IMG/VR virus record: IMGVR_UViG_3300032770_000007
Coordinates: 61,828 to 125,827 of that record
Source of the DNA: a virus
Reading direction: 5' to 3' (one strand)
Length of the DNA: 64,000 bases
Positions within the stretch are counted from its first letter, which is position 1. Each line of letters starts with the position of its first letter. The notes beneath the pieces are model-generated. The model had not been told where the DNA came from, did not search any database, and saw only the letters and a program-made list of their open reading frames with translations. The position numbers were made by a program, and so were the translations under genes. Shown piece by piece: positions 2,564 to 58,201 of this stretch.

Positions 2564-2946
2564 TTAAGTTCTTTCAAAACCTCTATGGCTTTTGGATCCA
2601 GATTATATTCATCCACTACTATATCTTGTCCATTCACTCCATAAACAACTGGAGGAGCAAAACCCAAATAATCTACAAATGGCAACAGTACCTCTAAATC
2701 TTTATGCTCTAACTTGAAGAATAATAATCTTGTCCCTTCTGGTCCAAATACATTATAGAATATTACCAAATGGTTCAAGATTAATCGTTCTTTCAAAATT
2801 CCTGTTGTATAATATTTCGTCAATAACCTCTTGATATATTGTATACGATTTATATCTTCTTCAAATTCATTCCAAACCGCATTTGGTTTGTCATATGCTT
2901 TTGCTGCTATCAATAAAAAGTTGTTCGCGGTAACATTATCTATCAC
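2560..2946 (-). CDS. conserved T4-like phage protein (DUF7207-like)
   Basis: NFLLIAAKAYDKP..EFEED..RIQYIKRL..LKERLILNH..NVFG pattern recalled from cyano/pelagi-myophages. Confidence 0.7.
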   Translation of the reverse strand: MIDNVTANNFLLIAAKAYDKPNAVWNEFEEDINRIQYIKRLLTKYYTTGILKERLILNHLVIFYNVFGPEGTRLLFFKLEHKDLEVLLPFVDYLGFAPPVVYGVNGQDIVVDEYNLDPKAIEVLKELK

Positions 2947-2950
2947 AATC

Positions 2951-3325
2951 TCACTCTATTTCTGCTTTGCGTGTCCTCAGGTGATGTTGCCCTTGCCAAA
3001 TCTGTTCTTCATCCCCACCCAGACTATCTAATATATCTAACTCTTCAGGTGTAGTCAGTGTTGCATATACATTATATTTAGCAGACACTTCTTCGTCCAA
3101 ATCAGTATCAAAAATGACATGTAGATAATAGGGAGGTTCTTCTATCCCATCAAATAAAATCTTGAAACATAATTCATCATCAAAGTTATCTATTACAGGA
3201 GCAGTTACTCCATGAGTTTCTAACTTGAGAGCAACAGCATGCCAGGCATCTGGAATGCTATCAAATGTTTGATCTGATAAAGTATCCAGATCATTGTTTA
3301 GATTATCTACATCAGCTTCTAACAT
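2951..3325 (-). CDS. acidic hypothetical protein
   Basis: ORF in operon. Confidence 0.6.
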   Translation of the reverse strand: MLEADVDNLNNDLDTLSDQTFDSIPDAWHAVALKLETHGVTAPVIDNFDDELCFKILFDGIEEPPYYLHVIFDTDLDEEVSAKYNVYATLTTPEELDILDSLGGDEEQIWQGQHHLRTRKAEIE

Positions 3326-3327
3326 AT

Positions 3328-3855
3328 CTAAAATCCATGTAGTTTGAGTTTTGAAATGGAATCTGCGGCCGAAGTATGGAGGATTCCTATACCTCTATTC
3401 TTCATCCATTCCTGAATATTTTGATTTGTATCATCAATAAGAATATTACTTATCACGTTTCTGTTCTCTATTTTGGTAGCATAGTTCTGTTTATGTTCTC
3501 TAAAGACAGCATGAAAATGATCTTTAGGTATACCAAGATACTTTTCACACCAAATCCATTTACCTTCACGAGCATATCTTTGAGAACTTTCTGATGGTGG
3601 TTCACCATTGATCCCTCTAGGAACTGCTGTCAAAATATGTGGCTCATAAGGAACAACATAGTTCCATAGAGTATGAAAGTCTCTAGTTGGTGGTAGATTT
3701 TCCCAAAAGTTAGGACATTCAAATACTCTATGATTTCTGGCTAACTTTTCTTGCCTCGAAACAGGAGCATTCCAATCTATTCCGGTTAGTAGTTTTACTC
3801 CTCTTACAAAATCAACCAGGACCCCATCCATATCAACATATAGCGTAGCACGCAT
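3328..3855 (-). CDS. HAD-family 5'(3')-deoxyribonucleotidase-like phosphatase
   Basis: YVDMDGVLVDF motif I, ILTA motif II, K, ILIDD motif IV. Confidence 0.85.
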   Translation of the reverse strand: MRATLYVDMDGVLVDFVRGVKLLTGIDWNAPVSRQEKLARNHRVFECPNFWENLPPTRDFHTLWNYVVPYEPHILTAVPRGINGEPPSESSQRYAREGKWIWCEKYLGIPKDHFHAVFREHKQNYATKIENRNVISNILIDDTNQNIQEWMKNRGIGILHTSAADSISKLKLHGF

Positions 3856-5462
3856 TATCTACCTCTATTTCCTAATGCTGATATTGCTTTGCTCTTGTTT
3901 AGTTTCAAAGTTGGTTTAGTATCAATAGGATTTGCTTTTGAACCAGTAGCAGTATAGCCACGGAACTGACCCAAGAACTTCTTGCGCTTACCTTCATCAA
4001 TAATCATATCTTCTTTGAGTGTCTTAGCGCGATCCTTTCTAACTATATGAAACTCTCCAGCATCATCCCTAATATGTAGTTCAGTTTTGAAAGGAACCAA
4101 TTGGCTGAAGGTATGTTCACGATGAACACTATGAACAGTCCCTGTTTTGTAACTATTTGTCTCAGGATGAAAATATTTCACTTTTTTACCAACCCAAGGA
4201 TGATTATTGATTTGACCTGCTTTGGTTATTCTACCTTCATCAATGATCATATCTTCATTCAATTCAAAATGAGAAATAGTTGACAGTTTTTCAGGAGTTG
4301 GATGACCAACTAAAGCATGATGATATAACTTGACATTTTTTACATTGTGTGCTTTTTCAACGTGAGTAATACGTTGAGCCATTGTCCATCCTGGAGAATG
4401 AGTAAAAGTATTATCATATGTCTTTTGAAGTTCCATACGAGTTGGTCCTGTATGTGCTTCTGTTATTCCATGCTGTTTACGCAATCTCATAATACCACCA
4501 TGAGCCACATTGCCTGGTGCTACATACTTATGAGCATCCTTGATGTGCTGAGCATGATAATGAGTACCGCCACCAGGTGTAGAATATTGTCTTTCAGAAG
4601 CATTTAGTTTATCAACAATACCCTTTGCTTCTGTTGGTGTATAGAGTTTTGGTTCATCACTTTTTGGCCAGGCATTCTGACGACCACGACCAGCATTACC
4701 TATCACTACATGAGTTGCTTCTTCTTCATTCATTATTGATTCAGCAATCCAACCACCTACATGCCAATGAGTCTTACCTTTATGAGCATGTAATGGTCCC
4801 CATTTCTTAGTATGATCTAAATGATAATCATGAATTTTATTTAGATCGGTATGTGGCGTCTGATGATGTTCAACTTTAGCACGGGATAGCTGAGTATCTT
4901 CATCATATGCACCACCTTCACCATGCTTAAAGCCGCTTCTATGAACATTATTGATATGATCTTGAACATGCTTTACGGTTGGAAATTTGTCAATAGGAAA
5001 GTTAGCATTATAATTATGTGCACCTTCTGTTAAAGATTCTTCTTTCAACTTTTTGTTAGCCAAAGCCACTCCCTTGGCTCTTTTGTCTGCCATCTTCTTA
5101 TGCTTTTCTGCACTAATGTTATCAATACCATATTGATTGGCATAATCTACAGCATGCTTGATTCCAGAGACCTGTGCTTTCCAACGATAGTTGTCAAGAG
5201 TTTTCTTTGAGATTTCTGTTATAGTTTCTTCATCCATGTCAGTATATCTTTTTCTTTCTTCATCATGATGTGCGGTCACTTCTGATTTGGCAACAGGATA
5301 GTTACTCAAACCATTGTTGATCAAAACGTGGGAACCAAAGTCTTGTTTCACGACTCCAAAACCACCCACATGCTTCACGCACGTGCCCACCCAATCAGAA
5401 GGATGGCCATCTTTCCAACCTTCTGTTAGTGTTTCTAATCTGATCTGTAGGAATGATTTCAT
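3855..5462 (-). CDS. His-rich modular internal head polyprotein (putative)
   Basis: CTS-like N-terminus MKSFLQIRLE; repeated (L/I)xE linkers; EDMIIDEG occurs twice. Confidence 0.6.
   Translation of the reverse strand: MKSFLQIRLETLTEGWKDGHPSDWVGTCVKHVGGFGVVKQDFGSHVLINNGLSNYPVAKSEVTAHHDEERKRYTDMDEETITEISKKTLDNYRWKAQVSGIKHAVDYANQYGIDNISAEKHKKMADKRAKGVALANKKLKEESLTEGAHNYNANFPIDKFPTVKHVQDHINNVHRSGFKHGEGGAYDEDTQLSRAKVEHHQTPHTDLNKIHDYHLDHTKKWGPLHAHKGKTHWHVGGWIAESIMNEEEATHVVIGNAGRGRQNAWPKSDEPKLYTPTEAKGIVDKLNASERQYSTPGGGTHYHAQHIKDAHKYVAPGNVAHGGIMRLRKQHGITEAHTGPTRMELQKTYDNTFTHSPGWTMAQRITHVEKAHNVKNVKLYHHALVGHPTPEKLSTISHFELNEDMIIDEGRITKAGQINNHPWVGKKVKYFHPETNSYKTGTVHSVHREHTFSQLVPFKTELHIRDDAGEFHIVRKDRAKTLKEDMIIDEGKRKKFLGQFRGYTATGSKANPIDTKPTLKLNKSKAISALGNRGR
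3989..4256. repeat. 25-bp direct repeat (1 mismatch) encoding linker EDMIIDEG, copies 243 bp apart
   Basis: taccttcatcaataatcatatcttc at 3989-4013 and taccttcatcaatgatcatatcttc at 4232-4256. Confidence 0.9.
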
Positions 5463-5920
5463 TACTTTGATCCTTGATCCTTTGCTTTGGTCCTCAATGC
5501 TGAATATTTCTGAGCAACACGACTCTGGGCTGGACCTATGTGAATAGGTTCTTTGTTCTTTTTATTATCAAGGAGATGAGTTCCCTTGAAATCTTCTCTA
5601 ACAGGATTCACTGGCTCAGCCGCTGCTGCTACCTGAGCAGTTCTCACTGTTCTGATTAGTTGATCATGAAGTTTGTGTTGAAATTCAGCAGCCTTCAAGT
5701 GAGCCTCAGCAGCACCCTTATAATCTCCTAGCATACCCAAACGAGTTGCCTCATTTGCATATTGTCTTGCTAGTTCACCACAATTTTCACCATCATAGGC
5801 ACCAGAACCAGAAATACTGATCTCCTCTGCCATGGCTGGATCAATCTTTGACTTTCTTGCCTCAGCATAAGCTTCTTTGAAACTCTGACTTACTTTATTA
5901 TCTTCTGAAAAAATACTCAT
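5462..5920 (-). CDS. hypothetical protein, possible head cargo
   Basis: Ala-rich helical ORF; SFKEAYAE CTS-like segment near the N-terminus. Confidence 0.6.
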   Translation of the reverse strand: MSIFSEDNKVSQSFKEAYAEARKSKIDPAMAEEISISGSGAYDGENCGELARQYANEATRLGMLGDYKGAAEAHLKAAEFQHKLHDQLIRTVRTAQVAAAAEPVNPVREDFKGTHLLDNKKNKEPIHIGPAQSRVAQKYSALRTKAKDQGSK

Positions 5921-5922
5921 GT

Positions 5923-8301
5923 TTACTTAGTCTCCCAGAACTTGATGTCTGTGGGCTTCAAACCCTCTTGTAATGTAATAGCACCTTTGCGTTCAAACTT
6001 CAAACAGGTTACATTGTCTCCATCTTTCACATAGACGTTATACTGCTTATTTGAACGAAATGGTTTATTAGTCTTTATGACTCTACCTTCATATATAGTC
6101 TCTTCACCTTCTACTCCCCAATCTTCATAGACTTCAGGAGTTGTATATGAAAGATCAGGTGATTTCAAAGAATAATCTTGACGAAAATCTTTGAATGATT
6201 TCTCTTCACTATTCATGCTCATGGTTGTAGAAATGCCCTGGTTACTACCATCAGCCTTTACAGAACTAGTTCTAAATGTCTTTACAGCTTTCTTTGGTTT
6301 ACCTGGTTTGACTGCTTCATCCATCCACCAAACCTTTGGTTTGATATGATGCCAAATATTTTTGTGTTTTTCATGGTGAGAATGAACAGCAGCAATCGCT
6401 TCTTCATATTCTGCCTGTCTTCCATGACCTTCAGCTTTACTTACTTCATGTGCAAGACGATTATGTTCCTTCTGGACATCGGCAATATGTGTTTTGAATT
6501 CCTTATGCTTTGTGCGCTTTGCTAGTTTTTCAAGTCTATCTTGTTCTCTTGATTTTTGTTTATTGGCCTTATTTTCAGCAGCCCATTGAGCAAATACTCC
6601 ATGACCTTCACCAATCGTGCCAACACCAGCCATGTCATCCCCTTGACGAGCATCAGTATGAGTTGCTGGAGCCTTGGCTGCTTTTCTAGGCTTATATTTT
6701 ACATTGGCCGTGCCTGGAGTTGCGGCCAATGGATTTGTTCCATTGGCACCTTGAGCAGCAAAAGCACCACCAACACTATCTGATGGACGGATTGTGCCAA
6801 GAGTTGAAGGAGCCTTCACAGGAGTTACACCTGATGGCTTATTTTGGTTACTAGTTTTCCAAAGAGTAGCCTCTGATGTAGAAGTTATTCCAGCACCAAT
6901 ATCAGCATGAAAAGTTGAGTTGCCAGGAATGGCTGTCCCTGGCAACTTTGTTACCTTGGTTTTACGAAACTTCTTGAAACCTGTTTCTTCTTTCAAACGA
7001 CTTGCACCAGTGCTAGAAGGATCATGGGGACCAGTAGCTATGACCTTTGGAGCATAGGGAACCTGGATAGTTGAAGCATTAGTTCTTAGTCTACCAGTCT
7101 TAGTATCTCTTACAAATCTGCTTGATTTATTATTTTTCTGATTAGGATTTTTAGGAGTTGGTTGTGAAGTGGTATTCGTTGATACTGATGTTCCTGGAGT
7201 TTCATTCAAAAACTCTGCTACTGTTTCATTGATAGATTTTTGACCAGTATAGAAACCAGTGATCAAATCATTTAGTTCATCAAACCATAGTTGTGTTTGT
7301 TCTGTTCTCAAAGGACTGCTATTATCAAAGATAGTAAACAGATTGAATTCATCATTCAGAACTTTAGCATTATATAAAGAACGAGTATATTTCTCTAATC
7401 TAACTTCTTCAGTGATAGTCTTGGCACCTAGTTTGATTCTTTGCTCATTTCTTGCCTGACTAACTTCATCAGTTGTGTAAACATATACACCAGCAGTTCT
7501 ATAGCCTACTGTCTCAAGCACTTTCTTGGTTAAAGTTATCTTCTTGAAATCATCAGCATTACCATTGACAATCAATGGCTCACCTTGATTGACTTCTGCA
7601 ACATTCTTTTGTTCATTGATAGCCTTGTAGAGTTTTTCTAGATTTATCTCAACCAGACTTTCATCATTGAGAACAGTTTCCCTTAGGAGAGCATCCTTGC
7701 CTGATCCTGGACCACCAATAAGGAACAAAGCAGTATACTGTTCAGCCTTTAGACCTTTTCTTGTTGCCATGTATAACTCTTTCGCATGTTGCTTGCTTGG
7801 AACTCCTTTACGGAAACTTTCAAAATCACCTTTTTGAGCATGCTCTCGCATCTTTGAAGCACTCATACCTTCAACACCTTCTGAATCAGGATCTCTATGA
7901 CCAGCTGAAACAACATGAATATTATCAAAGGTATATTCATGTCCATTATATTTATGAAGTAGGTTATGAAAGGACTTGACTCTGTCTTCACCCACAACCA
8001 TTGTAACTCTTTTATGTCCCATCTTTTGTAAATGCTTCATTGCATCCAATGGTGTCTTGATCTCAGCACCAGGATGAACATTTGTCCCTGGCAACATTGA
8101 TTGAATGAAATGAACTTTGTCTCTGTGGGTTAGAGGATTTTTCTTGTTGTCATGGGTACCAGAAACAAATACATAATGATTTGCCCCATGATGTCTAGCT
8201 AACTGTTTGACGTGGTTTATTAGTTTGGCATGTCCTGATGTTGGTGGGTTCATCCTACCGAACGTAAACACCGCCGCTTCTTTGACTTCTGGTTTTTCCA
8301 T
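5923..8301 (-). CDS. HxGH-type nucleotidyltransferase (cytidyltransferase-like) fused to P-loop kinase and a modular tail
   Basis: FGRMNPPTSGH, VGEDR, MSASKMR motifs; GGPGSGKD Walker A; low-complexity C-terminal modules. Confidence 0.85.
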   Translation of the reverse strand: MEKPEVKEAAVFTFGRMNPPTSGHAKLINHVKQLARHHGANHYVFVSGTHDNKKNPLTHRDKVHFIQSMLPGTNVHPGAEIKTPLDAMKHLQKMGHKRVTMVVGEDRVKSFHNLLHKYNGHEYTFDNIHVVSAGHRDPDSEGVEGMSASKMREHAQKGDFESFRKGVPSKQHAKELYMATRKGLKAEQYTALFLIGGPGSGKDALLRETVLNDESLVEINLEKLYKAINEQKNVAEVNQGEPLIVNGNADDFKKITLTKKVLETVGYRTAGVYVYTTDEVSQARNEQRIKLGAKTITEEVRLEKYTRSLYNAKVLNDEFNLFTIFDNSSPLRTEQTQLWFDELNDLITGFYTGQKSINETVAEFLNETPGTSVSTNTTSQPTPKNPNQKNNKSSRFVRDTKTGRLRTNASTIQVPYAPKVIATGPHDPSSTGASRLKEETGFKKFRKTKVTKLPGTAIPGNSTFHADIGAGITSTSEATLWKTSNQNKPSGVTPVKAPSTLGTIRPSDSVGGAFAAQGANGTNPLAATPGTANVKYKPRKAAKAPATHTDARQGDDMAGVGTIGEGHGVFAQWAAENKANKQKSREQDRLEKLAKRTKHKEFKTHIADVQKEHNRLAHEVSKAEGHGRQAEYEEAIAAVHSHHEKHKNIWHHIKPKVWWMDEAVKPGKPKKAVKTFRTSSVKADGSNQGISTTMSMNSEEKSFKDFRQDYSLKSPDLSYTTPEVYEDWGVEGEETIYEGRVIKTNKPFRSNKQYNVYVKDGDNVTCLKFERKGAITLQEGLKPTDIKFWETK

Positions 8302-8330
8302 CGCAAACTCTGTGTTGCCTGTATAATCAA

Positions 8331-9494
8331 CTATTTATGCTTTGAGAGATTTATTCTACTAAAGCCTTCTCTATTGACTAGTTTTGAAGGAAAACCATGA
8401 TGAATGGCCACAAATCCTTCTCCTGGACCTTCTCTACCATCAACACTGGTCACATAATGATTGGTCTTATCTAGAGCATCAATAAGAACATTCTTGGCTT
8501 GTTGTAAGTGATGATGTAGATCAAAGAGGCTTTGATATTTTTCATGGTGTTCATCCATGTGATTGAGATGAGACAGAAGTTGTTCTTTCTTCTTCAATCT
8601 ACCTGCCACAGTTTTCAACTTATCAGCCTCTTGTTTGTAATAGTTTGTAATAGAAGCCTTTAGACCAATGGCTGTAGGTTTCTCACCATTTCTTACAGTA
8701 TCATTGATATATTTCTTGATGAAGTTAGCATGACCTACTGTTTCTTTGAATGTCTCTGGATGAGCCTTTAGATAGGTCTTTTCAGCATCAGTTATATGTT
8801 TGGTGAAATTATTATCAAAATCTTCTCCACCCAAAGATTTATCCAAATGGAAATTAGGATCAATCAAATGAACTGATCTGCTACCACGAAAGTTGTGCAA
8901 ATCTGGTTCAAATCCAGCCGTCATTGATCCTAAATCTTTCCCATGATATTTGGTATGGACTACTATACCTATTTGAGCATGCTTAATCTTTTCTGCTTCT
9001 GGATCTTTCTTTTTGATACTATACATCAAGGTATTTGGAGTGAAATGATATGCCTTATCATCCTCATGTATAGTATCTTTATTGTACATGAAATCACCCT
9101 GATAAACTCCTGTATGAGGAACTACTCTTACCAAATGTTCTCTAGCTGATTTTAGTTTGGCTGCTAACTCTGGTCTATCAGAATAATGCTTTTCAATATC
9201 AGCTTCTGTGAAGTTTAAAGTTGGTTTGTCAGAAAGAACAGCCTTGGTGCCAACAAAGAACTTACCAGTCTTAGGATCATGCCCAAAGACGATAGAAGGA
9301 CTACCATCAAACTTTGTAGTGATTTTTGTAGTGGATGGTTTGCCTAAAATACGATCATGAACAGAATGAAGGAGGTCTTTGACATGTTGGTACCCACGAG
9401 CATCATCCTGCAAAATATGATCTTCTACATGCTCTAAGTGTTTCAGTTTTCCAAAAGAATCTAAACTCTCTGCAATATATTGTTTGAAACTCAC
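8331..9494 (-). CDS. DUF6267-like protein with ligase/covalent nucleotidyltransferase motifs
   Basis: KHLEHVED, TTKFDGSP (KxDG), YQGDFM, GEGFV, SKLVNR; N-terminus MSFKQYIAE resembles the T4 capsid targeting sequence. Confidence 0.75.
   Translation of the reverse strand: MSFKQYIAESLDSFGKLKHLEHVEDHILQDDARGYQHVKDLLHSVHDRILGKPSTTKITTKFDGSPSIVFGHDPKTGKFFVGTKAVLSDKPTLNFTEADIEKHYSDRPELAAKLKSAREHLVRVVPHTGVYQGDFMYNKDTIHEDDKAYHFTPNTLMYSIKKKDPEAEKIKHAQIGIVVHTKYHGKDLGSMTAGFEPDLHNFRGSRSVHLIDPNFHLDKSLGGEDFDNNFTKHITDAEKTYLKAHPETFKETVGHANFIKKYINDTVRNGEKPTAIGLKASITNYYKQEADKLKTVAGRLKKKEQLLSHLNHMDEHHEKYQSLFDLHHHLQQAKNVLIDALDKTNHYVTSVDGREGPGEGFVAIHHGFPSKLVNREGFSRINLSKHK
8332..8338 (-). promoter_or_regulatory. 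T4-type late promoter (ATAAATA)
   Basis: (C/A)TAAATA recurs upstream of late genes (also 26936, 49405, 52266, 53144, 56543, 60612, 60938); gp55 sigma is encoded. Confidence 0.6.
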
Positions 9495-48259: not shown

Positions 48260-48807
48260 GCAGTCAGATTATTGTCAATATTCGTAAATGTATAATAAGA
48301 ATAAACAAATGAAGCTGATACTGTTAGAATAGCATCAGCTGATACTTCTGTATCCATCTCAACAGGACCAAGATTAACAGGAAAACAATCCAGAAAAGCA
48401 AATTTGATTTCTTGATTATTCTTGGCGGTATAGATAGATAACTGAGCATCAGAGTATGGTGGTCTGATACCTGTAGAAGGAGGACCACCAGAACCCAAAG
48501 GAGGAGCATTATTTGCCAGCTCACGATATTGAGCAGCTGATACTGGTCTACCAATACCCATCATCCAGTTGAAAATATTATACCAGGCATTCATTTCAGC
48601 ATCAACTAAGAAAGTAACAGTCAATGGTTCATATTGAACTTTGGTTCCTGGAACCTTAAGATTAACAAATGGGGTTGGTTGGGTTGCTGTGCCTAGCATA
48701 ATGCCTGGTACTGCTACCTTTGTACAATAAAAAACTGTGTTGGCTATTCTATCAAATGAAAGACTAAATTTAGTCTTTTGTAAGAGATTTTGAGATAGAT
48801 TTGTCAT
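48256..48807 (-). CDS. gp3: tail tube terminator / tail completion protein
   Basis: NLLQ..KF, VPGI.LG, PG..VQYEPL..FLVD..IFNWM, YSDA.L, F.DCFP; position after gp23. Confidence 0.88.
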   Translation of the reverse strand: MTNLSQNLLQKTKFSLSFDRIANTVFYCTKVAVPGIMLGTATQPTPFVNLKVPGTKVQYEPLTVTFLVDAEMNAWYNIFNWMMGIGRPVSAAQYRELANNAPPLGSGGPPSTGIRPPYSDAQLSIYTAKNNQEIKFAFLDCFPVNLGPVEMDTEVSADAILTVSASFVYSYYTFTNIDNNLTA

Positions 48808-49361
48808 GCTATTATCCAAGAACCACCAACCCAACGTTTCCCTTTATTATGAGCTGGTTTATTGCGTTTATATGGAGCAAATGGTGACAGAAATACTCTA
48901 CCTCTCCAATAACCTTCTGGTGGTATTTTATCCTTATGCACTTTAATATTTATGGTGCCATTTGTATACCAATATTGATTTCTGCTATACTGATTTCCTT
49001 TAGAATGTAATAATGGTTTACCTTTCTTTGATTTACTAATATTTGCAGCTTTTTCTGGAGTACAAGGTCCTCCATCTCCTCCAGGAGTCATATTATAACC
49101 TTTACCATATGTTTGATATTCTTTGATAAAATATGGTTCCATTATATTTTTGGTATGGTTTTCATCTTTAGACATATAAATTTCTTGAACTTCAAATGCT
49201 TCCCAACCATGTTTGCGAATAGCTTGATGAAGATTATACATAGAACCCCTTTTGGCATTTGATCTATGTTCAGCTATCCGTTTATCAATAGAACAAGAAG
49301 TAAAACCTATGTATTGTTTACCATTCTTCTTATTCTTTATCAAATATATTGTACAAAACAT
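48804..49361 (-). CDS. GIY-YIG (Seg-like) homing endonuclease
   Basis: TIYLIKNKKNGKQYIGFT..R..EH, AIRKHG, GYNMTPGGDG. Confidence 0.9.
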   Translation of the reverse strand: MFCTIYLIKNKKNGKQYIGFTSCSIDKRIAEHRSNAKRGSMYNLHQAIRKHGWEAFEVQEIYMSKDENHTKNIMEPYFIKEYQTYGKGYNMTPGGDGGPCTPEKAANISKSKKGKPLLHSKGNQYSRNQYWYTNGTINIKVHKDKIPPEGYWRGRVFLSPFAPYKRNKPAHNKGKRWVGGSWIIA

Positions 49362-49580: not shown

Positions 49581-50993
49581 TCATTTTAGATTGCTTACAA
49601 TAGCCTTACGGTAGTATAGGTTACTGTTGGCAGTTAGAGCTCCTAGTCCCTGTGTGTAACCCTGTGCGAATGGGTTAGCAACCAAGCCATAACGGGTCTT
49701 GAAACCAATCTTAGGCTGATAGGTGTTAGGATCAATTGCACGTACCATCTGCAATGGAACATAAGGACAGTAGAACAAACCTGCATCGTAGGCATTTGAT
49801 CCACGGTATCCAGCAACATAGTAGTCTGCGCCTGATACTGAGTAAGGATCAACGAATACCTTCACCTTACCATTTAGGATGCCAAGGAATGTGCCTCTCT
49901 CATAGTCATCAGGCATTGCAACACCACCAGTAAGTTTATCGAACTTGCTTAGGTAGTCAAGCATTCCTGACATAGCCAGAGCCGATCCCACGTCTGAAGA
50001 GACGATAAGGATATTGCCCTTTCCTCTACGAGTATCCTTCTCGATTCTGTTACATTCTCTTTCAATCTGGAATACCAGACCCTTATAAGCTTCAACTGCC
50101 CATCTACCATATGAGTCACCAGTGAATGATGAACCAGTAAATGGTGTCAAGTTGAATGTACCTACAGAGGTTGATGTCTGAGCACCAACTGATGAGGTAA
50201 TGTAAATATTACGGATAACTTCACGATTGATTTCAGCCAACAGTTCTGTTGAAAGAATGTTAGCCAATTCTGTCTCAGCATCAAGACCATGAATGGCCTT
50301 CAAATCCTGTGCCAGTTCAAGGGTGTATCCAGCCTGCAAGCCACGGCCATTTGCTGTAACCGTAACTTTTTCGATTGAGAAACCCATGTTCTGCAAAGTT
50401 GTACCGCCACCCAAATCTTCTAGGTTAGCAGTTGGCCAGCCACCACCAGCACCATAGGCTGTGTTGCTACCACCAGGATTAGCATTCTGAGCTGAAGCAT
50501 TTGAAAGAGGACCAACAAATGCTAGTGATAGATTACCACCATAATTGTTAGCTTCCTGATACAGAGCTTCATTGTTTACACCATTGATCTGTGCGTTTGA
50601 TGTAGCATATACAGAACGCATTGCGAAGATCAAACCAGTAGGACCGGTCATAGGCTGAACACCGCAGACATCATAGCCCATCAAAACAGGCATGTTTCTA
50701 CGGATCAAACTAATCAGGATTGGGTCAAAACCAGCAACTGGACCAGCTGCTGTTGCGGCAGTAGCATAACCACCTGTACCAGCAAAATTGACTGGAAGTG
50801 TTTCTGTGATCATTCCACCACCAACGAAACCACCTTCAACCAACTGACGACGCTCTTCAGCTAATGAACGCTCTGTGTTTTCCAACAGCACGGCGCAATG
50901 TAGTCTACGAGTAGCATCCTTGATCTTTGGAAGGTCTTCGTGATCCAATACTGGACCCCACTTCTTCAATAGTTCATCGTTATTATATCTCAT
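49581..50993 (-). CDS. gp23: major capsid protein
   Basis: KWGPVLDH, GPVAGFDPILISLIRR, CGVQPMTGPTGLIFAMR, ELAQDLKAIHGLDAE, YCPYVPLQ, IGFKTRYG. Confidence 0.99.
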   Translation of the reverse strand: MRYNNDELLKKWGPVLDHEDLPKIKDATRRLHCAVLLENTERSLAEERRQLVEGGFVGGGMITETLPVNFAGTGGYATAATAAGPVAGFDPILISLIRRNMPVLMGYDVCGVQPMTGPTGLIFAMRSVYATSNAQINGVNNEALYQEANNYGGNLSLAFVGPLSNASAQNANPGGSNTAYGAGGGWPTANLEDLGGGTTLQNMGFSIEKVTVTANGRGLQAGYTLELAQDLKAIHGLDAETELANILSTELLAEINREVIRNIYITSSVGAQTSTSVGTFNLTPFTGSSFTGDSYGRWAVEAYKGLVFQIERECNRIEKDTRRGKGNILIVSSDVGSALAMSGMLDYLSKFDKLTGGVAMPDDYERGTFLGILNGKVKVFVDPYSVSGADYYVAGYRGSNAYDAGLFYCPYVPLQMVRAIDPNTYQPKIGFKTRYGLVANPFAQGYTQGLGALTANSNLYYRKAIVSNLK

Positions 50994-51022: not shown

Positions 51023-52240
51023 TTATGATCTTGCGACCTGTCTACTAATACCTTCAACATATCTTGCCATTGCACCACTTACTTCTTTCGTTTCAACTGG
51101 GGTTTCCAGTGATTCTGCCAAAGCAATTTGTGATTGTGGCTTCTTATTCACCTGGTTGTTAGAGAAATACTGACCACGTATAATGTTCAACTTTTCTCTA
51201 TATTCACCTTCTGTGGTGAACTCAACACTCTCTGTGAGCGTCCTGAATTTTTCTACTTGTGTGGCGGTGAGCCCTTCACAAACAGCAGAGATTAATTCGG
51301 TTTTCTTAGCTTCATTAATCTTTTTATTCAGTTCTACATTTGTATTTAGCGTTTCATTAATTTGAGCCTGTAGTTCCTCTACTTTAGCAGTCAAGGCTTC
51401 TACAACATCAACCTTCTCTTCTGGAATGTTCATGTTGTGCTCAACAAACAAATTACGCAAATCTTCAATAAACTCTTCAGTGATTTCGCTCTTTAGACCT
51501 GATGTAACAGCAACTTCATTCTTTGACATCCATTGCTCAACCATGTGGTCCAAATAACTATCAACCTGACTTTCTAGTTCTTCTTTGATTTCTTCTACTG
51601 CTTGTTCTGAAGCTTCAAGGATTTCCTTTTCAAGCTTTTCAACTACCATTACAGCACGTGTAATGACAGCAGCTTCAAATATAGTCTTTGCTTTTGTCTT
51701 GAAATCTTCTGATAGTTCAAAACCAGCAAACATTGCGGCCATGTCTTCTTCAACGGATAGAGACTTCATAGTCTCGCGAATACCTTCTAGACGAGCAACT
51801 CTTGCTGCTTCAATCTCTTCTGCTGTTGGAACAGTTTCTTCTTTATAAAGAGTATCAGCTGCTTCACCAGTTCCTGGAGCAGTATCAGCATTACCACTTT
51901 GTGTAGCTAGTGGTGGTTCTGCATCTGGTTCGCCTCTATTTGCGGCACCATCAGTATCATCCTTTTCTGGACCCTTGTGCATTGGTTCACCAGCAACAGC
52001 TGGTCCTTTTGGAGCAGCAGCCTGTGAACGATGTGCAGCAGTTACCTGACCAATATTTGTACCTTCAGGCTTTGTGGTTGTAGCACCACCCAAGTCTACA
52101 ACAGCACCTGCGGCTGCAACAGCACCAGGATCACTGCCACGCTCTGGCCCTCTATGCATTGGTTCTTGACCAGCCTTAGCAGAAGCCTGTAGGACGTCTA
52201 CGGCTGCTTCTGATAATGTTTTTCTTTTGGTGGTTGTCAT
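51023..52240 (-). CDS. gp22: prohead core scaffold protein
   Basis: LSEDFKTKAKTIFEAA, VDSYLD..VEQW, MARY; position. Confidence 0.93.
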   Translation of the reverse strand: MTTTKRKTLSEAAVDVLQASAKAGQEPMHRGPERGSDPGAVAAAGAVVDLGGATTTKPEGTNIGQVTAAHRSQAAAPKGPAVAGEPMHKGPEKDDTDGAANRGEPDAEPPLATQSGNADTAPGTGEAADTLYKEETVPTAEEIEAARVARLEGIRETMKSLSVEEDMAAMFAGFELSEDFKTKAKTIFEAAVITRAVMVVEKLEKEILEASEQAVEEIKEELESQVDSYLDHMVEQWMSKNEVAVTSGLKSEITEEFIEDLRNLFVEHNMNIPEEKVDVVEALTAKVEELQAQINETLNTNVELNKKINEAKKTELISAVCEGLTATQVEKFRTLTESVEFTTEGEYREKLNIIRGQYFSNNQVNKKPQSQIALAESLETPVETKEVSGAMARYVEGISRQVARS

Positions 52241-52284: not shown

Positions 52285-52929
52285 TTACAACTTGTTGATA
52301 AAATGGCTAAATGCTTTGAGTGTTGTTTCTTCCAAATTCTTACTCTTAGCATTCTTTACTTCTTGGTAGATAGCATGAATATCTGCTTCTTGAATTAGAC
52401 CATTATTCCAGACCCATTCCCTTTGTTCCATTAGTCCACGAACAAATGCATCAGGTGCTGAAGGATCGGCAACTATATCTGCACCAGTAGAAAGGTGATA
52501 GTCATCCTGGACCATGTTTATACCTTCTACCATTTTCAAAGAACCAACACCTCTTGAAGAAACACCAATTTGACCACCATCCTCAATGAGTGCTCTAACT
52601 GTATTTCCCATAGGTGTTTCTAATATTCTTGCTTTACCTATCCAGTTATTACCTTCTGATTTCAAATTAACAATACGATGAGAAGCACGATCAAGATTGA
52701 TAGTTGGACTTTCTGGATGACCTAGTTCGCCCCAGGCACAGTTACGATCAACTTTTTCCTTTAGATAACGTGCTACTTCACGTTCAAGAATAGCTCTTGG
52801 ATAGATACGGCTATTGCGATTTTTTTGTTCAGCCTGTAAGAAAACTCCCTCAATATAAAGGGATTTCTTACCTTCCTTTTCCTCAGTTAGGTAGCGAACG
52901 TCTTCTATTTGTTCAATCAATAAACGCAT
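52285..52929 (-). CDS. gp21: prohead protease
   Basis: IEGVFLQ..KNRNSRIYP, GELGHP, GVSSRGVGS, DIVADPSAPDAFV. Confidence 0.97.
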   Translation of the reverse strand: MRLLIEQIEDVRYLTEEKEGKKSLYIEGVFLQAEQKNRNSRIYPRAILEREVARYLKEKVDRNCAWGELGHPESPTINLDRASHRIVNLKSEGNNWIGKARILETPMGNTVRALIEDGGQIGVSSRGVGSLKMVEGINMVQDDYHLSTGADIVADPSAPDAFVRGLMEQREWVWNNGLIQEADIHAIYQEVKNAKSKNLEETTLKAFSHFINKL

Positions 52930-53192: not shown

Positions 53193-53468
53193 TTACAGTC
53201 CTAGACTGTGTCTCCTACGCATACTTCTGGCTCTTTTCATCAATATTCTCGCTCTTTTTGACTTGAGTTTGAATTTTGCTCTTCTGGCTCCTCTCTTACG
53301 ATGAAGCTTTTCAGAAGCACTCATTCTTACAAGTTTTCCATGAGATAATCTAAATCCCTTTACATTAGAGATTTTGACATTTCTCTGAACTTTACCACCA
53401 CGTATTCTTATTCTTACCCTCTTTATTCTTGGACCTACTTCTGTTAGAAAGGTCGCAAAACTACCCAT
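53193..53468 (-). CDS. gp68: basic prohead core protein (gp68-like)
   Basis: MGSFATFLTE then very Arg/Lys-rich (VRMSASEK..RKRGAR..RSMRRR..LGL); position. Confidence 0.7.
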   Translation of the reverse strand: MGSFATFLTEVGPRIKRVRIRIRGGKVQRNVKISNVKGFRLSHGKLVRMSASEKLHRKRGARRAKFKLKSKRARILMKRARSMRRRHSLGL

Positions 53469-53469
53469 T

Positions 53470-53943
53470 TTAGACGTAACCAAATGGTGGCTGATTTTCT
53501 ACATTTGCCCAAGCACCACAAAGGGTATTGGCTTTAAAGTTGACTATCAATGTATAAGTATCATTAGCATCCACATTGCTAACAAATAGATTGATATCTC
53601 CAGTAGCATTAGCACCAAGAGTATTTGGTATATAAACTTCAAAATCACCTGATTGATATTTACCCATGGTAACTATAGTCTGATTAGCATTAGCTCCAGA
53701 TGACTGAGCACTTGCATATTCTAATGATAAAAAACCATTAGCTATACCACAAGCAAAGGCTATTCTAGTTAATTCAATGATACAGTTACCAACTGAAGCA
53801 TTCGCGCCAGGTAATGTATTTGCAACAATAATCTTATTATTAGAAACTGCAGTTGTAGTGTTATATTGGCCAGTAACCTTGAATGTTGAAGTATAATCTT
53901 TGGTCCAAAGCTTTGTTGTAACTGGTGCATTGAATGTTGCCAT
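53470..53943 (-). CDS. putative virion structural protein, Ala-Asn rich
   Basis: Beta-rich composition, GANATGDI motif, located in the head module. Confidence 0.6.
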   Translation of the reverse strand: MATFNAPVTTKLWTKDYTSTFKVTGQYNTTTAVSNNKIIVANTLPGANASVGNCIIELTRIAFACGIANGFLSLEYASAQSSGANANQTIVTMGKYQSGDFEVYIPNTLGANATGDINLFVSNVDANDTYTLIVNFKANTLCGAWANVENQPPFGYV

Positions 53944-53944
53944 A

Positions 53945-54601
53945 TTATTTTTTCGCCTCTTTATTGACTAAATCACTGGCGAACTTCGCCACTTTCACTA
54001 ATCCCTCTGGACTACTATTTATCAATTCACTAAGTTTCATTTTATTTGAACTATTAACCTTGTGCCAGAGATCATGAACAGCCTTAGCAGTGACTGGATG
54101 AACTCTTGATGTTGCTCCATTATGGAATAGAACTTCATCCTCTTCACCTTTCCTAAGAATAGTATTTATTCGATGCATTGGTGTTTCTTGTAATACTTCT
54201 TCTTTCACATTTCCCTGTCCATAGTCATGAGACCAGGTACCTACCACTTGATCTCCATTATAAGCAATAGTGTGGCCTTTTGATTTACCAGCATAACCCA
54301 ATGGAGCACGATGACGTTGAATAGTTGTTGCTCCTTTTGATTTTACTTCATCTTCCCATTCACCGTACAAACGATGAGGAGCATTTTCTTTGATTGGTAA
54401 CATATTTGATGGTTTTAGTTTGCCCGTTGTATAATCATAAGGAATAGCGATAGAGATTGATAACTGAGGATTTGTATAAAGAGCTACTCTTTCTCCATTA
54501 GGATAGTTTCTAATAGCCATCCTTCTCATTTGTAATAACATTGGAGGATCAGCGGTTTCTAAAACCATATTTTCATGAATAAAGTTTCTAAAAGTTTTCA
54601 T
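53945..54601 (-). CDS. putative internal head protein
   Basis: CTS-like MKTFRNFIHE; DPPMLLQMRR..IR.YP.G.RVALY module; IKE, VKEE and LQE linkers. Confidence 0.65.
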   Translation of the reverse strand: MKTFRNFIHENMVLETADPPMLLQMRRMAIRNYPNGERVALYTNPQLSISIAIPYDYTTGKLKPSNMLPIKENAPHRLYGEWEDEVKSKGATTIQRHRAPLGYAGKSKGHTIAYNGDQVVGTWSHDYGQGNVKEEVLQETPMHRINTILRKGEEDEVLFHNGATSRVHPVTAKAVHDLWHKVNSSNKMKLSELINSSPEGLVKVAKFASDLVNKEAKK

Positions 54602-55214
54602 TTGATATACTCTTACATTTATCAAAATGCCAACGTTTCATAACATTATATTGACCAATTTTGCCACAATGAATACATTCTATCTTTTTTCTAGCTAAAG
54701 AAACCTTTCTAAGTTTTTCTCTAACTTTTGGACGTTTGATCGGACTATTATCACCTCTAAACTTATTTGCTATTTCTTTATTGAACATAGGATTATCAGA
54801 AATCATCATTTCAGTATGACGTTTCATATATTCAATATTTGTATGTAAATGATGATTTGCCCCAGATTTTTTCAAAATAACTTCTGGTCGATACATAGGA
54901 TTATCTGTTTTCAAATATTGAACAAACTTTCTTTTCAACCAACCAAATTCTTTGTTATTTACTCGTTGTCCATATTTATCCCAACTCATTACTTTTACAG
55001 CCCATAATAATGATTTATTTCCTGGATATATCTTTACTAATAGTTGATGCGCGACATAGTGTTCTTCTGGTGTAAGAAATGCAATATTGTCCTTGGTGTA
55101 TTTGCCTCCTAAGCAACCAGGAACTATTCGATGTCGTTCAAAGTAACCAGTTTTTGGTTTTGTCTTTGGAGCACGATTTATAAGTTTGTCATAATGATAT
55201 TGATAGTTCATCAT
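54588..55214 (-). CDS. HNH (Mob-like) homing endonuclease
   Basis: NYQYHYDKLI, ERHRIVPGCLGG..DNIAFLTPEEHYVAHQLL; DNPM repeats; C-terminal CIHC..RWHFDKC. Confidence 0.88.
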   Translation of the reverse strand: MMNYQYHYDKLINRAPKTKPKTGYFERHRIVPGCLGGKYTKDNIAFLTPEEHYVAHQLLVKIYPGNKSLLWAVKVMSWDKYGQRVNNKEFGWLKRKFVQYLKTDNPMYRPEVILKKSGANHHLHTNIEYMKRHTEMMISDNPMFNKEIANKFRGDNSPIKRPKVREKLRKVSLARKKIECIHCGKIGQYNVMKRWHFDKCKSISNENF

Positions 55215-55963
55215 TACTTCTTGTGCTTTGAGAAATAAGCACCTAGCGCACGGCGAATGCGTTGTTTCTTGCTATCACCTTTAAACATTTTATTCTTTGA
55301 ATGAACAAAGTCATCAATATAGGTAGAAGCAGAAGCATTAGGAGAAAGAACTTCATTGATCTTGTTCAATCTAATAGTATCTTCTTTCAAACGTCTAGGA
55401 TTGCTTGGATCATGTGGCCATAAATGCTTCACAAAATATCCGTGCATTTTCATCATATGGTCTCGATTAGTTCCCTTCTTAGCCAAAGCATGTTCTTCTG
55501 GAGTTCCAAAATGCTTTGCCATAAGTATAGCATTCTTATCATGGAAGTTTTCATCTTCATTCTTGCGATACTGACGGATTAAAGCTTTGTGATTTATAGT
55601 CTCATTCACAACTTCTTCAGCAGCAATATTATCAATATTTTTGGTTCTTAGACCATCAATATTTTGCTTAGCATTTTCAACCGCAGACTTCTTGATTTTT
55701 GGAGTTGCTTCTTCTTTAGCAAGTTTTTTAGCAGCTAATCTAACACCAGCCAAACGTTTATTAGCAGTACGCTTTGCTGAAGAATCGTTTGGTGTTTGAG
55801 CAAGTTGATTCGGTGTTAATGTTGAAGCCTGATGTACTCTCATAGCATGATGTACTGCGGCATGCATCATAGCAGAGCTAGCAGCCTTATCAATATATCC
55901 GGCTAATGTCTTCTTATTGAGTTCAGTTATAACTGTTCTTATTGTTGATAGGGTCTTAGACAT
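55214..55963 (-). CDS. putative modular internal head protein
   Basis: ITE, AKEE, VNE, LKE and INE linkers; first module similar to one in 3855..5462. Confidence 0.6.
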   Translation of the reverse strand: MSKTLSTIRTVITELNKKTLAGYIDKAASSAMMHAAVHHAMRVHQASTLTPNQLAQTPNDSSAKRTANKRLAGVRLAAKKLAKEEATPKIKKSAVENAKQNIDGLRTKNIDNIAAEEVVNETINHKALIRQYRKNEDENFHDKNAILMAKHFGTPEEHALAKKGTNRDHMMKMHGYFVKHLWPHDPSNPRRLKEDTIRLNKINEVLSPNASASTYIDDFVHSKNKMFKGDSKKQRIRRALGAYFSKHKK

Positions 55964-56503
55964 TTATTTCACGTGTCCAAAGTTGCGAGCAAAGTTTGCC
56001 ATTTTAGCAGCATGACCACCAGCAGCCAAACCTTTTTCAATATCAGCATGAGTAATAGGTTGATCCTCAGACTTACCCAACCAACGATGGAAGGCACCTT
56101 TTGCTATGTGGCCTACCTTTTCATCGATGGCTTCCCCACCAGCAGCTGGAAAAACTTCCTCTACACAAATGTGGCCTTCATTTCTCTCATTATACCAACG
56201 ACCCAGTTCCTCACCAGCACTTAATGCTACAAGGCAGTTTGGTTCCTGTGAATGAGCAGTTACTGCATCAGCACCATGCTCAGAAGCAGCCTGCTGCCAA
56301 GAATCAAAGTTATCAAACTTCATTTCGCCACCACCAGCAGATTCTGCTTCAGCATCAGCAACTTCATCTTCAAACAGTTTGCTGGCTATTTCTGCCTTCT
56401 TGGCTTCTAATGCCAAACCGATCTTTTCTCCAAGCACAGTTTCTAAATGTGTTTGAAAGTTGTGTGCCTGTTTTTGGTCTGCCATGTCTACAAATCTATT
56501 CAT
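55964..56503 (-). CDS. gp67: prohead core protein gp67-like with appended modules
   Basis: KIGLALEAKKAEIASKLFE followed by an acidic tract; directly after the portal. Confidence 0.65.
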   Translation of the reverse strand: MNRFVDMADQKQAHNFQTHLETVLGEKIGLALEAKKAEIASKLFEDEVADAEAESAGGGEMKFDNFDSWQQAASEHGADAVTAHSQEPNCLVALSAGEELGRWYNERNEGHICVEEVFPAAGGEAIDEKVGHIAKGAFHRWLGKSEDQPITHADIEKGLAAGGHAAKMANFARNFGHVK

Positions 56504-56545: not shown

Positions 56546-58201
56546 TTAGGATTTTGGTTGTTTCAAGAACTTCTGGGTAATATCATTCAAATCTGGAGTT
56601 TTTTGAGTAGGTTCAACCTCTTCTCCAGGCTTTTGTTCTGATCCTTCAACAGGTATTGGGGCACCAGGAGGCATTACAGGTGGCCAACCAGCCAATGGTG
56701 GATGTCCTGCCGCTTCTGCGTCTTTGAACTCTTGATCCATTTGCACCTGCATTTCTTCTATTTCATCATCAGATAGTCTAAGAATATTCTTCCAAACCCA
56801 AGTCTTTGAAAAGAATGTTCCCATGTAAGGCTGGATCACATTTAGTGTGTTTAGTCTTACAGTTAGGATTTCTACATCCTTCAGTTCAGCAAAGTTATTG
56901 TCTTCATGGTATTGATAGAAAATGTCCTGTTTGAACTGGTTCCATTCTTCTACTGTGCAAACACCTTTGAGTGCTAACTGTCTTTCCATGAGACTATCAA
57001 ACAATTCAGAGAACTTTGAACGCATTCTGTGAATGTACTTGTCAAACTTCACTTCATCTCTAGTGATCTCACCTGGTCTACCAATACCAAAAATTCCTTG
57101 TGGTTGCTCAATACGAGATTGTGGCAAACCAAGAGCTCTATACAACTGCTTCTGGAAATACAAAACATCATCCATTTGAGATAGATTTTGTCCTGCTGGA
57201 AGTGTTGTTATTTCTGTTGTTTGCTTACCATCACGTCTTGGCATCCAGAAATCTTCTAACATAGCAAAATGCTTTCTATCATCCCTTATTTCACCAGTAG
57301 AACTATCATAGGTAAGTTTGTTACGATAGTTGGTCATCATATTCTTTAAATACTGTTCAGCCTTCTGCTTATTCATTCCACCAACATCAATATAGAACAC
57401 TCTTCTTTCTGGTGCTCTGGTTACGCGATAGATAACAGTGGCATCTTCTACGAATCTCAGCTGATTGAGTGGTCTAATAGCCTTGTGAAGATAACTCAAA
57501 ATAGTATTCTTGATTGGATCAAAGATACCTGATGTGATCTGAACAACACTATCTTTTGATAGACGAACACCAGCAGCTACTGAAGTTTGAAATAGAGGAT
57601 TACCACTATTTGGATTAGTCATTAAAAGTTTATCATTATAGATATAGAACTCTTCTACTCCAGTGATAACTTCTGCTCCTTGAGCATTCTTTTCTTTTGT
57701 GACCTGACGAACTTTCTTGATCTTTCTACTATCAATATAGACTAATGTCTGAATGCCTTTTCTTGGATCATTGTCATCAATCACGACATTGTAATAAAGT
57801 CTGCCATCAATATACCATTTACGGAATATATCATCACCATGGTTATTGAAATCTAAGAGCTTGATGACATTATCAAACTCTTCTCTGATTAGTTGCTTGA
57901 TCTTGTCTGGTTCTTTTAGTTTATCAGTGTTGATCTTGACAATCTGTCCAGAATCTGTATCATGGACAATAGCCTCATCAATAATATCATTGATAGCATT
58001 CTCCATTTCTGGTTGAAGTGCCATCTGACGGTATTTGTGAATGAGATCAAGTTCAGAACGATAAGAAGCATCCAAATCAACATAGATACCACTAACTGGT
58101 GCTTCAACTATAATGGCGCCATCATCACCTTGTGGCGTGATTACAGTTTGAGGAATCTCATCCTCGTCTTCTCTTTTAATCTCAAAGCCAAAAAGTTTAA
58201 T
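56546..58201 (-). CDS. gp20: portal protein, probable AUU start at 58201
   Basis: KLFGFEIK N-terminus in frame upstream of the track ORF; WYIDGR, SYLHKAI, IYRVTRAPERRVFYIDVG, LEDFWMPRR. Confidence 0.97.
   Translation of the reverse strand: MKLFGFEIKREDEDEIPQTVITPQGDDGAIIVEAPVSGIYVDLDASYRSELDLIHKYRQMALQPEMENAINDIIDEAIVHDTDSGQIVKINTDKLKEPDKIKQLIREEFDNVIKLLDFNNHGDDIFRKWYIDGRLYYNVVIDDNDPRKGIQTLVYIDSRKIKKVRQVTKEKNAQGAEVITGVEEFYIYNDKLLMTNPNSGNPLFQTSVAAGVRLSKDSVVQITSGIFDPIKNTILSYLHKAIRPLNQLRFVEDATVIYRVTRAPERRVFYIDVGGMNKQKAEQYLKNMMTNYRNKLTYDSSTGEIRDDRKHFAMLEDFWMPRRDGKQTTEITTLPAGQNLSQMDDVLYFQKQLYRALGLPQSRIEQPQGIFGIGRPGEITRDEVKFDKYIHRMRSKFSELFDSLMERQLALKGVCTVEEWNQFKQDIFYQYHEDNNFAELKDVEILTVRLNTLNVIQPYMGTFFSKTWVWKNILRLSDDEIEEMQVQMDQEFKDAEAAGHPPLAGWPPVMPPGAPIPVEGSEQKPGEEVEPTQKTPDLNDITQKFLKQPKS

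Follow-up and report, generated by a model that had tools for sequence, protein, structure and literature searches.

The window analysed here is a stretch of 64,000 nucleotides (nt), the right half of the 125,827-bp IMG/VR virus record IMGVR_UViG_3300032770_000007, with nearly all its genes on the minus strand. It contains, at 49.5-60.6 kb, a T4-type head and tail block whose genes follow one another on that strand in the order sheath, tube, portal, p179, p249, HNH endonuclease, p226, a protein of 157 amino acids (aa; p157) and p96, and then an 84-aa membrane protein, a gp21-type protease, a gp22-type scaffold and the major capsid protein (Table 1). The present work concerns four of these proteins (p179, p249, p226 and p96), together with p387, p792 and p535, which are encoded by a second locus 45 kb away. 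Their modules each start at the cutting motif of the phage's own head protease (leucine or isoleucine, any residue, glutamate; L/I-x-E), so that we take them to be head-associated proteins that this uncultured T4-like phage makes from shared modules and that probably enter the capsid and are cut into pieces, a cargo-polyprotein reading that is well supported in silico. The nearest named phages, judged by the portal protein, are Methylophilales phage Melnitz and cyanomyoviruses (only about 52% identity), and a DNA search of a phage collection returned no near-identical DNA for 53193-56503.

Table 1. Features of the window, with a slash in a motif marking the predicted cut.
Feature	Coordinates	Strand	Basis and remarks
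p179 residues 1-45, gp67-like prohead-core N-domain	56369..56503	-	position and profile; ends KLFE/D
p179 residues 46-128, acidic insert with W-like segment (62-117)	56120..56368	-	flanked by LFE/D (45) and IDE/K (128)
p179 residues 129-179, GAFHxWLGKSED module	55967..56119	-	76% identity to residues 31-84 of the L002 658-aa polyprotein
KKTL module of p249, residues 15-86, basic helical hairpin	55706..55921	-	VITE/L before; net charge +8
FVHSKN module of p249, residues 205-249	55217..55351	-	KINE/V before
p226, 218 aa from ATG 54601 (226-aa open reading frame)	53945..54601	-	leader, domain A, W module, C-domain
p226 leader MKTFRNFIHE, like a capsid-targeting sequence (CTS)	54572..54601	-	orthologues begin at same Met
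p226 W module, residues 76-136 of the 218-aa protein	54194..54376	-	kept in 7 family members
p96, 91 aa from ATG 53468 (96-aa open reading frame), gp68-like	53193..53468	-	leader MGSFATFLTE and very basic body (+30)
p535, 'polyprotein'	3855..5462	-	leader MKSFLQIRLETLTE/G; 10 L/I-x-E sites, giving predicted pieces of 45-95 aa
KKTL module of p535, residues 84-146	5025..5213	-	TITE/I before, LKE/ESLTE/G after
p792, cytidylyltransferase-like and P-loop kinase-like domains, long tail	5923..8301	-	Pfam
p387, DUF6267 protein	8331..9494	-	Pfam DUF6267 E 6.1e-86; leader MSFKQYIAE
Portal protein gp20	56546..58075	-	Pfam Portal_T4 E 4.7e-165; listed from TTG
HNH homing endonuclease	54588..55214	-	phrog_655 E 3e-45; between p249 and p226 genes
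p157, small conserved protein	53470..53943	-	no leader; between p226 and gp68-like protein
gp21-type prohead protease	52285..52929	-	Pfam Peptidase_S77 E 4.8e-40
gp22-type scaffold	51023..52240	-	Pfam T4_CASP E 2.1e-65; 12 L/I-x-E motifs
Major capsid protein gp23	49581..50993	-	Pfam Gp23 E 7.4e-118; MITE/T at residue 64

Results

The KKTL module and its family

An earlier, sequence-only reading of this DNA had matched a module of p249 with one in p535, and the match is real, both by BLASTP (expectation value, E, of 3e-4 over the segment named) and by profile comparison, which is significant for the two proteins alike. In particular, a hidden Markov model (HMM) built from 641 database copies of this module, here called KKTL, matches residues 78-143 of p535 (E 1.1e-16) and residues 12-86 of p249 (E 1.4e-16), these being the only two significant matches among the 655 open reading frames (ORFs) of the record. 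A five-sequence profile, run against 1.84 billion representative proteins, matched 4741 of them at E<=1e-3, 1643 at <=1e-10 and 158 at <=1e-30; the best 150 of the 4741 have 3-10 matched stretches per protein, and the six proteins that we inspected are tandem arrays.

Not one of 59 single KKTL modules matches any Pfam family. For the multi-copy protein P0010, some 20 residues match DUF7443 at 29.2 bits (the gathering cut-off is 27 bits), and neither p249, p535 nor any of the 59 modules matches that family. Additionally, phrog_5709 matches all six multi-copy proteins tested (E 5.6e-16 to 4.6e-32), and p249 and p535 match neither this nor any other PHROG at E<=0.01; both DUF7443 and phrog_5709 are families without an assigned function.

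The AlphaFold2 model derived from 59 aligned modules is a helical hairpin (predicted local distance difference test, pLDDT, of 87), with helices at residues 10-41, 44-48 and 55-79 of the 81-residue piece and with residues 1-9 (I-T-E included) forming a low-confidence tail before helix 1. The core of the module is strongly basic, with a mean net charge of +8.6 and a positive value in 99.7% of 615 copies; the seven residues leading into it are acidic (-3.7). Foldseek found no counterpart of this model among viral models at E<=0.001, its top rows being uncharacterised phage proteins, and the ESM Atlas returned no score of 0.9 or more and no usable lead.

T4-style leaders and the gp67- and gp68-like proteins

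The starts that had been likened to capsid-targeting leaders, MGSFATFLTE from ATG 53468 and MKTFRNFIHE from ATG 54601 (both on the minus strand), are likewise genuine. A strict leader pattern, M-x(1-3)-[FYLW]-x2-[FYWIL]-[ILV]-x-E with at least 40 aa downstream, occurs at only three starts in the six frames of the 125,827-bp record, namely these two and MSFKQYIAE at 9494, which opens the DUF6267 protein p387. In T4, the internal proteins IPII and IPIII start MKTYQEFIAE and IPI starts MKTFKEF, and the orthologous leaders in three related contigs read MSFKKFLAE, MKNFKEFLTE and MKQFKEFLAE for one protein and MGSFLEFLTE, (M)GSFKDFLVE and MGLFTKFLTE for the other. According to PMC9026906, gp21 of T4 cleaves L/I-X-E behind its Glu; targeting lies with leader residues 4 and 7 and processing with residues 8 and 10, and Asp at position 10 blocks the processing. 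The leaders of p226 and p96 have F4 and F7, that of p387 is alike with a shift of one residue, and all end in L/I-x-E with Glu (FIHE, FLTE and YIAE); in p535 the corresponding LTE lies at residue 14. Across 37 loci, leaders head 11 of 43 module-bearing proteins, compared with 20 of 423 other proteins (Fisher p 2.5e-5). Most of these 20 are gp68-like or are neighbours that resemble the DUF6267 and cytidylyltransferase genes of the same two loci in size and position.

The gene of p179 lies directly downstream of the portal gene, as does gene 67 in T4, and a profile comparison aligns residues 1-45 of the protein weakly with T4 gp67, the register holding from residue 1 onwards (hhalign P of 7e-4 and a probability of 26%). 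BLASTP of p179 against T4 gp67 gave no match; phrog_1064, labelled 'prohead', matches the homologous N-domain of the database protein P0001 (E 0.0032). The insert that follows this domain in p179 has a net charge of -17 and is not present in the orthologues from two related loci (L003 and L004), and the GAFHxW module at the end of p179 is found in a third (L002) at the N-terminus of a 658-aa polyprotein, with other modules behind it. As for p96, it matches phrog_3503, 'head scaffolding protein' (E 0.0022), and its last 21 residues only (the C-terminal tail) match T4 gp68 (hhalign E 0.016).

Module shuffling at two conserved loci

The pool of interchangeable mini-domains that had been postulated exists and is larger than first seen, with KKTL, FVHSKN, W and GAFHxW modules occurring in varied orders and beside varied partners. 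L002 keeps the gene order of the window but joins the parts differently: a 119-aa protein there unites the gp67-like N-domain of p179 with a KKTL module, and the 658-aa chain, which opens with GAFHxW, also contains a KKTL module and the FVHSKN module that is C-terminal in p249. Distinct instances of the FVHSKN module (45 aa) were found in 19 proteins, where it is C-terminal, internal or placed after KKTL, and in 8 of them, proteins of the cytidylyltransferase locus, it directly follows the N-terminal leader (e.g. MKSYKDMINE/VLTK). The W module of p226 recurs, with a KKTL module behind it, in P0162, a protein of 329 aa that is built otherwise (E 2.8e-13); a search for it in longer proteins returned 7 proteins only.

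Additionally, the gp67-like domain stands in relatives either alone with an acidic tail or before GAFHxW, KKTL arrays or FVHSKN. The scaffold of one locus (L039), which is homologous to that of the window (E 3e-41), has two N-terminal KKTL modules (E about 1e-25 each), and another (L008) has a partial one; scaffolds, by their definition, are located within the prohead. The claim that such modules can be appended to any core or scaffold protein is thus overstated in its 'any', and what we observe is three carriers, the leader, the gp67-like domain and the scaffold.

Proteins with KKTL modules are concentrated at two places. Among the 28 IMG/VR loci that the KKTL profile brought up (several of them near-duplicates), they lie between portal and protease in 15, beside homologues of p792 (the cytidylyltransferase) or p128 in 11, and are unplaced in the remaining 2, which are short contigs. 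The window has one KKTL copy in each of these two conserved loci, and the position of p535, after the cytidylyltransferase gene, is that of the 11 loci and also that of the KKTL proteins in the cultured phages Cr30 and P-TIM68, which directly follow cytidylyltransferase genes. We also note that the protein of Caulobacter phage Cr30 (L010), gp064 (7016-9064, 682 aa, annotated as hypothetical), starts MRSKILAE/ISKKTL and interleaves four KKTL copies with other small modules, with repeated ESE(E/N)(M/L)(I/N)(N)E joints.

The motif at the module joints

That the modules are bounded by (I/L/V)xE sites holds largely for p179, p249, p226 and p535, the C-terminal end of KKTL in p249 being the part for which it does not. 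The sites of these proteins (45 and 128 in p179; 14, 194 and 204 in p249; 10, 15, 72, 134 and 139 in p226; 14, 83, 141/146 and five further on in p535) fall where homology to relatives breaks. In particular, the two sites of p179 flank exactly the insert that L003 and L004 are without, and the large insertion in the L002 homologue of p226 starts directly after PIKE.

Three comparisons give the protease-site reading support that is free of circularity. First, although the FVHSKN model starts only after the Glu, [LIV]xE stands immediately before 15 of the 18 instances for which upstream sequence exists, in flanks that are otherwise unrelated. Second, in 196 proteins with KKTL masked, L/I-x-E lies within -8..+3 of 391 of the 1042 starts of local similarity, against a mean of 156 (standard deviation 10.9, maximum 185) for random positions in 200 draws. 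Third, the motif is nearly absent inside 599 KKTL cores (2 observed, 112.5 expected by shuffling). Even where the module is poorly conserved, in its middle, L/I-x is followed by Glu in 1 of 1310 cases, against 4.41% after other residues (odds ratio, OR, 0.017), whereas Asp after L/I-x is not avoided (OR 0.84); L/I-x-Glu was found in 0 of 908 cases with one copy taken per protein, and in 0 of 326 in the alignment-defined cores of 59 locus-derived modules. The avoidance does not extend to 184 other genes of the same phage (OR 1.13), and the polyprotein parts between KKTL modules are enriched in the motif (OR 2.0).

The phage encodes the protease that this pattern calls to mind, itself with 9 L/I-x-E motifs in 214 aa (the genome mean is 1.09 per 100 aa), and the ITE/T at residue 64 of its capsid protein agrees in position with SFLTE/A at residue 65 of T4 gp23. 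The motif stands at module starts and between modules, and hardly ever in KKTL cores, a pattern in favour of the protease-site reading.

The W-type match

A segment of p179 (residues 62-117) had also been likened to the W module of p226 (residues 76-136), and here the outcome is borderline and short of significance, with a profile signal in the claimed register that BLASTP does not find. This likeness, and it alone, could be a product of chance or of convergence between two small beta-rich segments, an explanation that we find plausible, though we lean against it. It would account for the missing BLASTP alignment, for the marginal score of the p226-family HMM (E 0.044-0.046, at 7.5 bits), for an hhalign probability of just 52% over 50 columns and for the outcome of a homologue search with residues 48-130 of p179, which found none. 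It sits less well with the fact that p179 62-117 is the best non-self match of that HMM among the 655 ORFs, end to end and in the register claimed, that the hhalign P of 1.5e-4, obtained in the same register, concerns a pair named in advance, and that similar marginal matches occur in the KKTL polyproteins P0093 and P0113. In the model of p226, the W module has four strands, at low confidence.

The distant locus and the virion proteome of a relative

Both domains of p792 are near the Pfam cutoffs (CTP_transf_like 21.1 bits, with a cutoff of 21; Zeta_toxin 21.8 bits, just under its cutoff of 22.3). In the cyanophage S-CREM2, the virion proteome includes the cytidylyltransferase ORF154 and its neighbours ORF155, 156 and 160 (PMC10665884). 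The N-terminus of S-CREM2 gp154 reads MKNFSSFLTE, and the protein shares 35% identity with the N-terminal domain of p792; since gp159 matches p128 of the window, the S-CREM2 locus is the counterpart of window 2560-9494.

Several further observations concern the same locus. The tail of p792 is rich in Ser, Thr and Pro, with sites such as SINE/TVAE/FLNE/T, and p792 homologues in two loci (L020 and L026) start MK(N/K)YRQLVKE. The K-x-D-G motif of p387 (TTKFDGS) is as in ligase-type nucleotidyltransferases, and the three neighbours similar to p387 in size and position in L017, L037 and L033 have leader-like starts.

Neighbouring genes

The ATG of the HNH gene overlaps the p249 stop and its 3' end overlaps the p226 start, and in L003 and L004, with no HNH gene between them, the counterparts of p249 and p226 abut; L002 has another HNH gene, placed between the portal gene and the gp67-like gene. 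Two other ORFs, 3-500 and 48804-49361 (minus strand), open with GIY-YIG-like motifs (YIDPRT...YVGKG and IYLIKNKKNGKQYIGFT) and probably encode additional homing endonucleases, one lying beside the capsid gene. Homologues of p157 in L002, L003 and L004 are 39-45% identical, and neither Pfam nor PHROG has a match for p157; searching loci with this protein on its own found nothing, and a search with an alignment of the basic protein found 3 loci only.

The portal frame is open and conserved for about 40 codons upstream of its first canonical start (TTG 58075), at 58076-58200 on the minus strand (IKLFGFEIKRE...PQGDDGAIIVEAPVSGIYVD); the true portal start may be non-canonical, since this stretch contains no ATG, GTG or TTG. 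In a distant relative (L009), an ADP-ribosyltransferase gene (4624-5484, plus strand; PF03496, E 4.1e-13) lies between the portal gene and a p226-like gene, which recalls the packaged Alt enzyme of T4. Finally, the word MTAAATAR, a looser version of the T4 late-promoter word, is not enriched (15 matches, 20.8 expected), and all 15 matches are on the coding strand (e.g. 8331, 52265, 56542 and 60611), four of them 25-45 nt upstream of p792, the scaffold, p179 and the sheath, a weak hint that it could be a late-promoter-like word.

Discussion

The modules, their shuffling, the two loci, the pattern of sites, the avoidance of the motif inside modules and the fusion with the scaffold are direct observations, from which we infer packaging, cleavage, and the fate and function of the pieces. 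In the mechanism that we propose, p179, p249, p226 and p96, together with the products of the second locus (p387, p792 and p535), would be loaded into the prohead core, drawing on a pool of modules (the KKTL hairpin, the 45-residue FVHSKN, the small beta module W and GAFHxW) that appears to be common to many environmental T4-like phages. Entry into the core may rely on any of three carriers, a T4-style leader of 9-16 residues, a gp67-like N-domain or direct fusion to the gp22 scaffold. The gp21-type protease of the phage would then cut after the Glu of L/I-x-E and release pieces of about 45-95 residues, of which the KKTL ones (about 60 aa, net charge about +9) may stay with the DNA as internal proteins, the acidic linkers being lost. 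Taken as a whole, that is, module proteins from two loci loaded in the prohead core and cut by the gp21-type protease, we consider this reading rather likely.

A more far-reaching version holds that these genes are combinatorial capsid-cargo cassettes, in which the very large and hitherto undescribed family of KKTL modules, other mini-domains and enzymes would be made as polyproteins from the two conserved loci, loaded by interchangeable carriers and released by the protease as separate proteins, internal or ejected, with selection having purged the motif from module interiors. On this version, for which we would give not quite an even chance, the KKTL pieces would rank as an important new class among the internal proteins that associate with DNA. 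The hairpin itself may be a DNA-associated internal protein, a hook that binds the shell or a disposable scaffold.

A number of points weigh against loading and cutting. The KKTL copies have L, I or V at position 5 (350, 236 and 47, i.e. 633 of 642) and Glu, never Asp, at position 7 (636 of the 636 copies with a residue there, 6 being gapped), a count that is partly circular, as the copies were picked by a profile containing L/I-x-E, and Glu7 could be structural, being invariant along with Tyr16, Arg53, Gly56 and Ala60. The boundary and avoidance samples consist of related sequences, so that their p-values overstate independence, and the C-terminal end of KKTL in p249 has no site nearby. In the p226 model, five of the six sites lie in segments with pLDDT below 50 (8-22, 68-89 and 124-139) and site 192 lies in a helix, and as the model is poor (mean pLDDT 62), placing the sites in linkers has low confidence. 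Leaders are not universal either: p792 starts MEKPEVKE, not a classical leader, and p157 has none at all. TATAAATA, the late-promoter word of T4, occurs once where 6.2 matches are expected and so shows no enrichment. Additionally, S-CREM2 has no KKTL, FVHSKN or W module, so that its proteome backs packaging of the locus and not of the modules.

The alternative that fares best among those concerning the system as a whole is that the modules are no cargo but work in the assembly core and are then discarded, as a kind of extra scaffold (acting, for instance, in inner-shell binding or head size) that is cut and expelled before DNA entry. The modules do occupy the gp67/gp68 position and are fused to the gp67-like domain and to the scaffold itself, the charge data would allow a basic hairpin to bind an acidic shell interior, and core proteins of T4 are cut to fragments that mostly leave the head (PMC9026906). 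Nevertheless, a scaffold meant for degradation is rich in sites (12 in that of the window, and 9 in the protease), whereas the strict avoidance of L/I-x-E inside KKTL suggests a module that must survive the protease; moreover, the second locus encodes enzymes (the cytidylyltransferase and the DUF6267 protein), and the first of these is still present in mature virions of S-CREM2 (PMC10665884). We therefore hold this alternative to be unlikely. Domain shuffling without proteolysis, with L/I-x-E as a structural element, leader-like starts as a feature of translation or folding, and the proteins of the distant locus in the cytoplasm, seems to us very improbable, for although Glu7 could belong to a helix N-terminus or a Glu-Arg contact (Arg53 being invariant along with it), Leu8, Ser9 and Leu13 look like a helix cap in our reading of the model and the cutting is deduced indirectly, the same motif precedes FVHSKN and other unrelated similarities, Glu (and not Asp) is excluded after L/I-x even at poorly conserved loop positions, the model puts residues 1-9 outside the fold, the capsid protein retains the motif at the T4 cleavage position and the motif is the documented gp21 rule (PMC9026906).

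If loading and cutting take place as proposed, the leader/protease device of T4 would be widespread in aquatic T4-like phages, where it would load chains of swappable modules and enzymes, and an unannotated protein family with thousands of members would acquire a role. Capsid-targeting leaders and their processing by gp21 are textbook knowledge for T4, from single small proteins in a few coliphages. The rule of a site at each joint and none inside could predict virion cargo from genomes, and the system could supply natural leaders, carriers and linkers for the packaging of foreign proteins in T4-type heads. The literature that we searched contained no published description of such polyproteins, nor one of DUF7443.

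Comparison with known systems

The closest parallel is provided by the T4 proteins IPI, IPII, IPIII and Alt, which share with the window proteins a leader of about 10 residues, hydrophobic at positions 4 and 7, with I/L at 8 and Glu at 10 (MKTYQEFIAE compared with MKTFRNFIHE). A gp21-family protease and a gp22 scaffold are encoded by the window phage as well, its genes lie partly outside the head cluster, as do ipI-III and alt in T4, and the predicted products are small and basic, like the T4 internal proteins. They differ in that each T4 leader heads one mature protein, whereas the window leaders head multi-module chains with L/I-x-E per module, in that modules of the window type also ride on the gp67-like domain and on the scaffold, and in that the mature parts have no sequence similarity.

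With gp67 and gp68 of T4, the proteins described here share the position of their genes between portal and protease. Residues 1-45 of p179 can also be aligned with residues 1-45 of gp67 (which sets the LFE of p179 opposite the LIE motif of gp67), and p96 has a basic C-terminal tail resembling that of gp68. These sequence similarities are weak (P 7e-4 and E 0.016, respectively), p179 has two extra modules, and relatives carry in their place KKTL arrays of up to hundreds of residues.

In giant phages of the phiKZ/SPN3US type, many head and ejection proteins are trimmed at S/A-x-E by a gp21-related protease (PMC9026906), so that there, too, packaged proteins are cut after the Glu of a three-residue motif, with multiple sites in the propeptides. 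Both the motif and the lineage are different, however, and the giant-phage proteins lose their propeptides, none of these proteins being described as a chain of interchangeable mini-domains in the part of that source available to us. The system of the window is, in this light, a new variant of T4 CTS/gp21 biology.

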